From positions 2,769-66,768 of the forward strand of contig JAEYWL010000111.1 in assembly GCA_023428915.1 (NCBI GenBank): a DNA stretch of 64,000 bases. The letters run 5' to 3'. The translations under genes and the position numbers were made by a program. The DNA comes from Verrucomicrobiota bacterium. Lineage in GTDB: Bacteria > Chlamydiota > Chlamydiia > Chlamydiales > JAEYWL01. Shown here piece by piece: positions 61,541 to 62,302 of the stretch (position 1 is the first letter of the stretch; the number at the start of each line of letters is the position of its first letter). Below the pieces are notes generated by a model. The model did not search any database. It saw nothing but the letters and a program-made list of their open reading frames with translations, and had not been told where the DNA came from.

Positions 61541-61556
61541 TGGCACGGTATTGGCA
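61541..61556 (+). promoter_or_regulatory. sigma-54 (RpoN) type -24/-12 promoter
   Basis: TGGCACGGTATTGGCA against the consensus TGGCAC-N5-TTGCW. GG and GC are at the exact canonical spacing, with one mismatch in the -12 element. It lies 41 nt upstream of ATG 61597, with a GGAGG SD in between. Confidence 0.65.
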
Positions 61557-61596
61557 TATACATACGCAAACAACAATACGAGAGTTTGGAGGGTAT

Positions 61597-61791
61597 ATGG
61601 CAAACCAAAAATTAAGAAAACAGATTGCAAAATTAGAATTTATTAATGACCAGTTAAGCACTGAACTTGCTGATTTAGACCTTCTCTTACAGAGAAGCGG
61701 TTTTCCCAATGGTCTTACCTCGCTTAAGTTGGTGGCATTAGAGATGCTCGCTGAGCAAAATCAAAATGAACCAAAGCTTACCGAAGAGTAA
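61597..61791 (+). CDS. small hypothetical protein (64 aa), paralog of 62072-62302
   Basis: ggaggg SD 4 nt upstream. It shares L.TEL...D.LL...GF..GL...K..A.EM with the downstream small ORF and has an acidic C-terminal tail. Confidence 0.55.
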   Translation: MANQKLRKQIAKLEFINDQLSTELADLDLLLQRSGFPNGLTSLKLVALEMLAEQNQNEPKLTEE

Positions 61792-61936
61792 GACACAAGA
61801 TTCTTAAATTTACATAATTTTTATATATAGTTTAAGTCCGCTTAACGGTGGGGACTCATTATAAAGTCATTACAGCTAATAAAAGCGAATGATGAATCCG
61901 CAATAATAATAAGCAGTAATAATAATATTTTTTAAG

Positions 61937-61976
61937 CCGGACTTGGGAGCCAATGACCCAAGTTCGGTTTTTTTTT
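61937..61976 (+). terminator. rho-independent terminator
   Basis: ccggacttggg-agccaatga-cccaagttcgg (11-bp stem, one mismatch) is followed by ttttttttt. Confidence 0.6.
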
Positions 61977-62021
61977 GCTTTTAAGACTCGGGCACGGGTA
62001 ATTCGGGATAAAGGGGTGAGC

Positions 62022-62037
62022 TGGCATGGTATTGGCA
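62022..62037 (+). promoter_or_regulatory. sigma-54 (RpoN) type -24/-12 promoter, second copy
   Basis: TGGCATGGTATTGGCA. The surrounding 25 nt (gagctggca[c/t]ggtattggcatata) are almost identical to the first copy. It lies 35 nt upstream of ATG 62072, with a GGGAGG SD in between. Confidence 0.6.
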
Positions 62038-62071
62038 TATAGTAAGGCACAAACCCTACTAGGGAGGCAGT

Positions 62072-62302
62072 ATGAAAAAGATCGATATACAAGAGAAAAG
62101 AGAATTACAAGCCAGAAAAGCACAATTAGAAAGCATGCATGACCATCTGCTCACAGAACTGACCTATGTGGACAATTTGCTGCGCCTGGTAGGATTTAGC
62201 GGCGGCCTTGCCACTGTTAAAGCTACTGCAAGAGAGATGGCGGAAATAAAGGAGGAAGAGCAAGAAAATCACGAGCAAAATGATGAGGAAATGAGTGCCT
62301 AA
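62072..62302 (+). CDS. small hypothetical protein (76 aa), paralog of 61597-61791
   Basis: LLTELTYVDNLLRLVGFSGGLATVKATAREMA aligns with LSTELADLDLLLQRSGFPNGLTSLKLVALEML. It has an acidic tail (EEEQENHEQNDEE). Confidence 0.55.
   Translation: MKKIDIQEKRELQARKAQLESMHDHLLTELTYVDNLLRLVGFSGGLATVKATAREMAEIKEEEQENHEQNDEEMSA

Follow-up and report, generated by a model that had tools for sequence, protein, structure and literature searches.

Tandem Ctl0021-family genes with predicted sigma-54 promoters in an environmental chlamydia

There are just two sites at which sigma-54 was found bound in Chlamydia trachomatis by chromatin immunoprecipitation and sequencing (ChIP-seq), ctl0021 (CT652.1) and ctl0052 (CT683), and both were bound late in infection only (PMC12282069, mSystems 2025). 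The concern here is with two small genes of the ctl0021 type, open reading frames (ORFs) 1 and 2, that lie in tandem in a distant environmental chlamydia, each behind its own predicted sigma-54 promoter. They are near one end of a stretch of 64,000 nt, hereafter the window, which comprises positions 2,769 to 66,768 of the forward strand of contig JAEYWL010000111.1 (GenBank assembly GCA_023428915.1, deposited as a Verrucomicrobiota bacterium and placed by GTDB in the Chlamydiales, JAEYWL01); this DNA is of metagenomic origin, from scaffold_186 of LEMO22-1 (ENA ERZ28594556). Coordinates below count from the first nucleotide of the window.

Ctl0021 and CT652.1 are the same protein, and Table S1 of PMC12282069 supplies the sequences of its orthologs. 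The authors of that study found sigma-54 but not sigma-66 at ctl0021 of C. trachomatis, cite the transcription start sites mapped by Mathews & Timms 2000, and report a putative sigma-54 promoter upstream of every ctl0021 homolog, those of Chlamydia-related bacteria included; other bacteria are stated to lack Ctl0021 homologs (PMC12282069). The activator, CtcC, is without a DNA-binding domain, ctl0052 is missing from Protochlamydia, Parachlamydia and Simkania, and a missing rpoN ortholog is flagged for Rubidus massiliensis alone among the listed Chlamydia-related genomes (PMC12282069 and its Table S1).

The best explanation of the window locus, and one that can be held with considerable confidence, is that it consists of two independent sigma-54 (RpoN)-dependent units, each of a single Ctl0021/CT652.1-family gene. 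Its parts are as follows.

61537-61560, plus strand: box 1, of the GAGCTGGCAYGGTATTGGCATATA type (TGGCAC-GGTAT-TGGCA), predicted sigma-54 promoter of ORF1
61588-61593, plus strand: Shine-Dalgarno sequence of ORF1, GGAGGG, as read off the sequence
61597-61791, plus strand: ORF1, 64 aa, ATG start, A-subfamily (GFPxGL) member of the Ctl0021/CT652.1 family
61934-61976, plus strand: rho-independent terminator, 14-bp stem (61934-61970) with a 9-nt loop and a T9 run to 61976
62018-62041, plus strand: box 2, of the GAGCTGGCAYGGTATTGGCATATA type (TGGCAT-GGTAT-TGGCA), predicted sigma-54 promoter of ORF2
62062-62067, plus strand: Shine-Dalgarno sequence of ORF2, GGGAGG, likewise read off
62072-62302, plus strand: ORF2, 76 aa, ATG start, B-subfamily (GF[SA]GGLxTVK) paralog of Ctl0021

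With ctl0021/CT652.1 of C. trachomatis the locus shares the LExxNDQLxxEL...GFPxGL...K..A.E core and acidic C-terminus, at 40-50% identity to the Chlamydiaceae orthologs, together with a sigma-54-type promoter directly upstream and a short leader. Chlamydiaceae, however, have one copy of ctl0021 where the window genome has two diverged paralogs, and the -12 element of the predicted window promoters is TGGCA and not T[T/C]GC[T/A]. A tandem arrangement of ctl0021-family genes with their own sigma-54 promoters is on record for PNK_RS09960-09975 of P. naegleriophila KNic, in a syntenic locus upstream of SNF2 (PMC12282069 Table S1). The four A copies of that array, spaced about 248 bp apart, are nearly identical, which makes their duplication recent, whereas the window pair is one A and one B. 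As to ctl0052/CT683, it shares the promoter type and is placed in the same proposed minimal regulon, but the TPR protein that it encodes is unrelated; tblastn found no match to that protein in the window.

The targeting of the family by sigma-54 and the tandem copies with individual promoters in P. naegleriophila were thus already known. What is new is the member organism, the B paralog as a second conserved gene with predicted sigma-54 control, a promoter variant with G at -14 that falls under the published scoring cutoff, and evidence of recent promoter homogenization. The results refine the predicted regulon of Chlamydia-related bacteria and are an incremental extension of the published work: a ctl0021-type module, one of only two ChIP-seq targets in C. 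trachomatis, has been kept in a distant relative, there in tandem with an ancient paralog that is predicted to be sigma-54-driven as well, and the published matrix misses the window promoters as well as roughly half of those that precede family genes in other lineages.

Family membership and promoter motifs

Compared by BLASTP with eight published ctl0021 orthologs, ORF1 is 40-52% identical to them (E 1e-13 to 2e-18; for the C. pneumoniae ortholog 50%, E 1.5e-16), while ORF2 matches seven of the eight at 37-49% identity (E 4e-11 to 4e-16). A hidden Markov model (HMM) of the eight picks out ORF1 (E 4e-23) and ORF2 (E 2e-17) alone among the 1087 stop-to-stop segments of the window. On the strength of these matches both are members of the Chlamydiota-specific Ctl0021/CT652.1 family, and ORF1 is likely the ortholog of ctl0021; no Pfam or NCBIfam model matches either ORF. 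Alignments and tail composition, together with a structural model of ORF1, agree with the shape of the family, that is about 55-75 aa with a LExxNDxLxxE...D.L...GFxxGL...K..A.E core and a variable acidic C-terminus. The two ORFs are 42% identical to each other across 48 aa (E 4e-10). Nine of the last 20 residues of ORF2 are acidic and one is basic; the tail of ORF1 is milder, with four acidic residues and one basic in its last 14.

The family is sizeable, a full HMMER scan giving 346 clusters (at 50% identity) and a profile search 736 proteins, and an alignment of 80 of its sequences has 15 invariant columns. As far as the sources name organisms it is restricted to Chlamydiota: the 22 genome loci with relatives that were fetched, after a genome scan that used a B-only alignment, are all from Chlamydiota metagenome-assembled genomes or isolates, and every named match is to Protochlamydia, Parachlamydia or Parachlamydiaceae. 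Nearest to the window among the relatives found is L024, a Logan contig whose ORFs are 80% (A) and 72% (B) identical to those of the window. Relative to it the proportion of nonsynonymous differences (pN) is 0.12 for ORF1 and 0.15 for ORF2, and that of synonymous differences (pS) 0.97 and 0.75, respectively. Since synonymous sites are saturated while pN stays at 0.12-0.15, both ORFs are real and constrained, and this pattern of substitution indicates that both are under purifying selection. A GGAGG equivalent to the Shine-Dalgarno sequence of ORF1 is found in nearly all family members.

The generic bacterial sigma-54 consensus is TGGCAC-N5-TTGCW. Both window boxes have the GG and GC of such promoters 10 nt apart and match the -24 element in full, as TGGCAC or TGGCAT; they differ from it by G for T at -14. 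In box 1 the GG (-24) is at 61542-43 and the GC (-12) at 61554-55; in box 2 they are at 62023-24 and 62035-36. The two boxes agree at 23 of their 24 positions, start 54-60 nt before their ORFs, and are the only places in the window with GAGCTGGCAYGGTATTGGCATATA, even when three mismatches are allowed (none is expected by chance, and no shuffled sequence gave a match). The looser pattern TGGCAY-N5-TKGCW likewise has just two matches in the 64 kb, TGGCACGGTATTGGCA at 61541-56 and TGGCATGGTATTGGCA at 62022-37. From the C of the -12 element to the ATG is 42 nt for box 1 and 36 nt for box 2, and transcription is predicted to start near 61567 in unit 1 and near 62048 in unit 2, which would leave 5' untranslated regions (UTRs) of about 30 and 24 nt.

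How general is this arrangement? When the 110 nt upstream of each family gene were extracted from 22 other Chlamydiota genomes, YGGCAY-N7-GCW was seen ahead of 28 of these genes. Its -12 C precedes the ATG by 28-56 nt, the median being 38 nt for 30 promoters, the two of the window included. Across the 122 kb of those loci, both strands counted, the motif occurs 35 times; 28 occurrences are at family genes and the other seven are about what chance would give (7.4). The positions that do not vary between lineages are YGGCAY and GC at fixed spacing, whereas the second TGGCA of the window boxes is elsewhere TTGCA, TCGCA, ATGCA or AAGCA. A position weight matrix (PWM) made from the 28 foreign family promoters ranks box 1 and box 2 first and second among all positions of the window on both strands, with scores of 12.5 and 10.9. 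These sequence comparisons support the reading of the boxes as sigma-54 promoters.

Between the two units the hairpin at 61934-61976 has a folding free energy (dG) of -21.1 kcal/mol (z -5.0; none of 200 shuffles folds as well). It is kept in L024, and analogous hairpins stand between A and B in L001, L006, L007 and L008. A consensus terminator scanner passed over it, probably because its loop is of 9 nt and the limit of the scanner 8. Since this terminator separates ORF1 from ORF2, the two transcription units are taken to be independent.

Much of this had been anticipated in a sequence-only reading of the same DNA. The two ORFs it took for paralogs align on exactly the motif that it quoted, and the -24/-12 spacing it called exact (GG-N10-GC in both boxes), the strong Shine-Dalgarno sequences ahead of both ATGs and the terminator between the units have all held up, as has the assignment of sigma-54 promoters, the latter through orthology to ctl0021, through retention of the motif at the 28 foreign family genes and through the ranking of the boxes by the matrix derived from them. 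Homologs of the kind it proposed to seek in other Chlamydiae are present in the 22 other Chlamydiota genomes and among the published orthologs. A near-identical box does stand ahead of each ORF, though it is of 24 nt and not 25, and the acidic tails it gave to both proteins are strong in ORF2 and weaker in ORF1. Its description of the pair as a candidate regulon member of unknown function has to be abandoned, the family being, by orthology to ctl0021, already the best-documented sigma-54 target of the phylum.

Five family genes are without a recognizable sigma-54 motif in the 110 nt upstream (L016 3003, L017 2985, L019 2767, L020 2740 and L002 3000). Those of L016 and L017 begin 70-118 nt past an A gene, with which they may be co-transcribed. 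In L002 the A promoter TGGCACGCTTTTCGCA is present twice (at 2084 and about 2204), some 120 nt apart, ahead of a single A gene; it may be a duplicated promoter or the leftover of a lost copy.

Two subfamilies and the likeness of their promoters

Subfamily HMMs separate the two genes in opposite directions. ORF1 scores 81.9 bits with the A model and 59.7 with the B model, and ORF2 68.9 with A and 93.4 with B. The A type, with its GFPxGL turn, takes in the Table S1 ctl0021 orthologs of Protochlamydia and Parachlamydia, and the Chlamydiaceae orthologs lean weakly to it. An A gene followed in tandem by a B gene is found in at least 12 other genomes (L001, L002, L004, L006, L007, L016, L017, L019, L020, L024, L031 and L033). 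Judged by these profiles and this gene order, the duplication that gave rise to ORF1 and ORF2 is ancient and A and B are two paralog subfamilies. The sequence-only reading was right that a promoter-gene module is present as two tandem paralogous units; that duplication is not, however, a recent one. In L019 and L020 there is a third, middle copy of the family.

The neighbourhood is conserved too, with ogt, A, B and a convergent SNF2 helicase gene in that order in many Chlamydiota genomes. Of the 22 genome loci, 15 have the helicase gene downstream, as does L024, and eight have an ogt-type methyltransferase gene upstream. In the window the flanking genes are as follows.

59816-60286: ogt
60350-61465 (stop at 61465): LRR-protein gene, between ogt and A, its product with a hydrophobic Ala/Gly-rich C-terminus
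62306-63973 within the window, minus strand: convergent SNF2 helicase gene, 890 aa in the full contig

ORF2 ends 3 nt from the stop of the helicase gene. Where the window has the LRR-protein gene L024 holds a different gene, of 334 aa.

B genes carry sigma-54-type promoters as well, and none of the B promoters scored reaches the cutoff of the published chlamydial sigma-54 PWM (Table S1 of PMC12282069, in which the authors set it at 10). A Protochlamydia amoebophila-type contig and P. naegleriophila KNic each have both A and B, with promoters. In the former the B promoter is TGGCATACCACATGCA, at 4.15 on the published PWM, and the UWE25 annotation includes this B protein. The KNic locus (L033, LN879502.1 2341088-2349279) has two to three B copies besides its four A copies. 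One has an intact promoter, TGGCATGGAAAATGCA, that scores -4.5; another has a degenerate -24 element with TGGTAT in place of TGGCAT; and the annotation of one copy gives it 40 additional N-terminal residues, probably through a mis-called start. The B genes of neither genome are among the Table S1 entries. Both paralogs would be open to study in cultivable Protochlamydia species.

The published PWM strongly prefers a T-rich spacer and T or C at -14, and only half (14) of the 28 other-lineage family promoters reach its cutoff, because of which the regulon predictions made with it for Chlamydia-related bacteria are likely incomplete.

With the genes so diverged, the likeness of the two window boxes calls for an explanation of its own. 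The A and B boxes agree at 23 of 24 positions in the window, at 12 of 24 in L024 and at 10-16 of 24 in six further genomes. The A promoter of L024, TGGCACGGCAATGGCATAT, keeps the core despite the saturation of synonymous sites and shares the unusual G at -14, whereas its B promoter, TGGCATCATCTCTGCATATA, has the canonical T there and an unrelated spacer; the L024 promoter orthologous to box 2 is TGGCATCATCTCTGCA. This distribution suggests that the near identity of the window boxes is lineage-specific and due to recent homogenization, probably by gene conversion, with a short stretch of the A promoter written over its B counterpart once the window and L024 lineages had split.

Weighing the readings

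Several observations weigh against two sigma-54-dependent units with homogenized promoters. On the published PWM box 1 scores 9.08 and box 2 7.99, both under the cutoff, even though the matrix of the 28 foreign promoters places them at the head of the window; the shortfall arises because both have G at -14 (TGGCA and not TTGCA or TCGCA), to which the published PWM gives a probability of 0.00155, and none of the 28 other-lineage family promoters has G there. Six-frame translations of the 64-kb window hold no rpoN and no NtrC-type AAA+ signature. With regard to the homogenization, the lone C/T difference between the boxes fits the orthologous states in L024 (C in A, T in B), and since it does so and L024 is a single outgroup, convergence or a mosaic tract are possible alternatives to conversion.

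Might the boxes be alike merely since the copies are young, with no regulatory implication? The units are adjacent, co-oriented and similarly organized, as would be expected had a promoter-gene cassette recently been duplicated in tandem, and their boxes are nearly the same. A youthful cassette is nonetheless hardly tenable when its coding regions have only 42% of their amino acids in common, when each ORF falls into its own phylum-wide subfamily (82 against 60 bits for ORF1 in A and B, 93 against 69 for ORF2 in B and A), when the A-then-B order recurs in at least 12 other genomes, and when L024 has both genes with dissimilar promoters. Nor need a box of this kind belong to sigma-54 at all, as its likeness to a sigma-54 promoter could be coincidental and its true function that of an operator for another DNA-binding protein, recognized as the direct repeat TGGCA-N6-TGGCA, or of a sigma-66 promoter with a CATATA-like -10 element. 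The G at -14 makes that repeat perfect, unlike canonical sigma-54 promoters, the scores are below the published cutoff, and the window, L024 and L004 all have GCATAT[AT] after the -12 element. What varies between lineages, however, is the second TGGCA, and what does not is exactly YGGCAY and GC; the sigma-54 determinants being invariant and the repeat unconserved, the evidence goes against an operator of that type and against a sigma-66 promoter. A sigma-70-type scan reported no match at either box, and in C. trachomatis it is sigma-54, not sigma-66, that binds at the ortholog (PMC12282069). Both versions of this alternative are very improbable.

The remaining alternative concerns the products and not the promoters, and it is the one to be taken most seriously, unlikely as it is: the small proteins would be nucleomodulins, effectors that leave by type III secretion and reach the host nucleus, instead of factors acting within the bacterium. 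In its favour, a CT652.1-BlaM fusion was secreted by C. trachomatis, CT652.1 was rated 'possibly secreted', and GFP-CT652.1 was nuclear upon ectopic expression in HeLa cells (PMC12671076). Yet just one of three assays gave a result for CT652.1 (PMC12671076), a GFP fusion to a protein of 6.6 kDa may reach the nucleus passively, and a core conserved across very different hosts (the 15 invariant columns among 80 sequences, with more than 700 homologs) would be unusual for host-targeting effectors and would accord better with a bacterial partner. Because that core is strongly conserved across Chlamydiota with unrelated hosts, an intrabacterial late-stage role seems somewhat more likely for the family than a host-directed one, though this is a weak judgement.

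The AlphaFold2 model of ORF1 (from the 80-sequence alignment; mean predicted local distance difference test score, pLDDT, 88) is a helical hairpin of about 55 residues, with a helix at 2-33, the GFPNGL turn, a second helix at 40-57 and a disordered tail. Helix 1 has weak similarity to the GCN4 zipper (E 0.05), beyond which no PDB relative was found by sequence or fold. Ctl0021-family proteins, we infer, most likely function as dimers during late-stage differentiation.

For the preferred reading, two sigma-54-dependent units, the course of events would be that sigma-54 RNA polymerase binds the GG (-24) and GC (-12) of each box as a closed complex which, by analogy with C. trachomatis, the general NtrC-type activator CtcC, under the control of CtcB, would remodel late in the developmental cycle. 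If the activator is without a DNA-binding domain, as reported for CtcC, an upstream activator site is not to be expected. The output would be transcripts with leaders of about 24-30 nt and strong ribosome-binding sites, the terminator at 61934-61976 would hold the two units apart, and A would be the ctl0021 ortholog and B the ancient paralog, their promoters recently homogenized, probably by way of a short gene-conversion tract. A more ambitious version can be put forward only as improbable. In it environmental chlamydiae would have a sigma-54 regulon built round a co-regulated A/B pair of helical hairpins that cooperate, for instance as a heterodimer, with promoters kept matched by concerted evolution and with additional lineage-specific upstream elements absent from C. 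trachomatis, candidates for which are the GGGCAC arrays and the block at 61805-61836 that are described below.

Flanking elements

Three further features of the region have to be mentioned.

61491-61518, plus strand: hairpin 3' of the LRR-protein gene, with a perfect 12-bp stem
61805-61836 (L024 1904-1935), plus strand: AT-rich block TAAATTTACATAATTTTTATATATAGTTTAAG, just past the ORF1 stop
61989-62016, plus strand: CGGGCACGGG...ATAAAGGGG element, directly upstream of box 2

Elsewhere in the window there are two sigma-54-like motifs at 33838-33853 (plus strand, TGGCAGGGTTTTTGCT) and 33860-33875 (minus strand, TGGCAAGATACTTGCT), which face each other within 40 nt and one of which scores 10.9 on the published PWM; as promoters they were rejected, as they are internal to a minus-strand ORF of 608 aa (32571-34397) and probably due to chance. 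A scan of JGI metagenome contigs for the exact box found it in six (GC 0.40-0.62), with a family gene downstream in none, and such matches are therefore uninformative on this lineage. Rfam, at a permissive threshold, gave no match in 61300-62500.

The hairpin at 61491-61518 folds well (dG -17.1 kcal/mol, z -6.1), and the tail that follows, TCAGTCTTT, is only moderately T-rich; it is probably the terminator of the LRR-protein gene and would insulate unit 1. The block at 61805-61836 is identical in L024 at 29 of 32 positions, although the genes on either side have saturated synonymous sites. After it comes a small hairpin, TTAAG-N4-CTTAA, of which L024 keeps the stem and alters the loop, and a 3'UTR element or a small RNA (sRNA) promoter is a possible interpretation of the block.

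The element at 61989-62016 contains the sole GGGCACGGG of the window, and the segment is absent from L024. It resembles the right arm of the inverted repeats with GGGCAC arrays that are upstream of the A promoters of other lineages. These repeats (L004 1393-1544 and L016 2490-2626) have arms of 36-60 nt that are 83-94% complementary, with an AT-rich centre between them, and in both of these distant lineages they come after the stop codon of ogt and ahead of the sigma-54 promoter of A; an enhancer-like element, a miniature inverted-repeat transposable element (MITE) and a terminator are the candidate identities for them.

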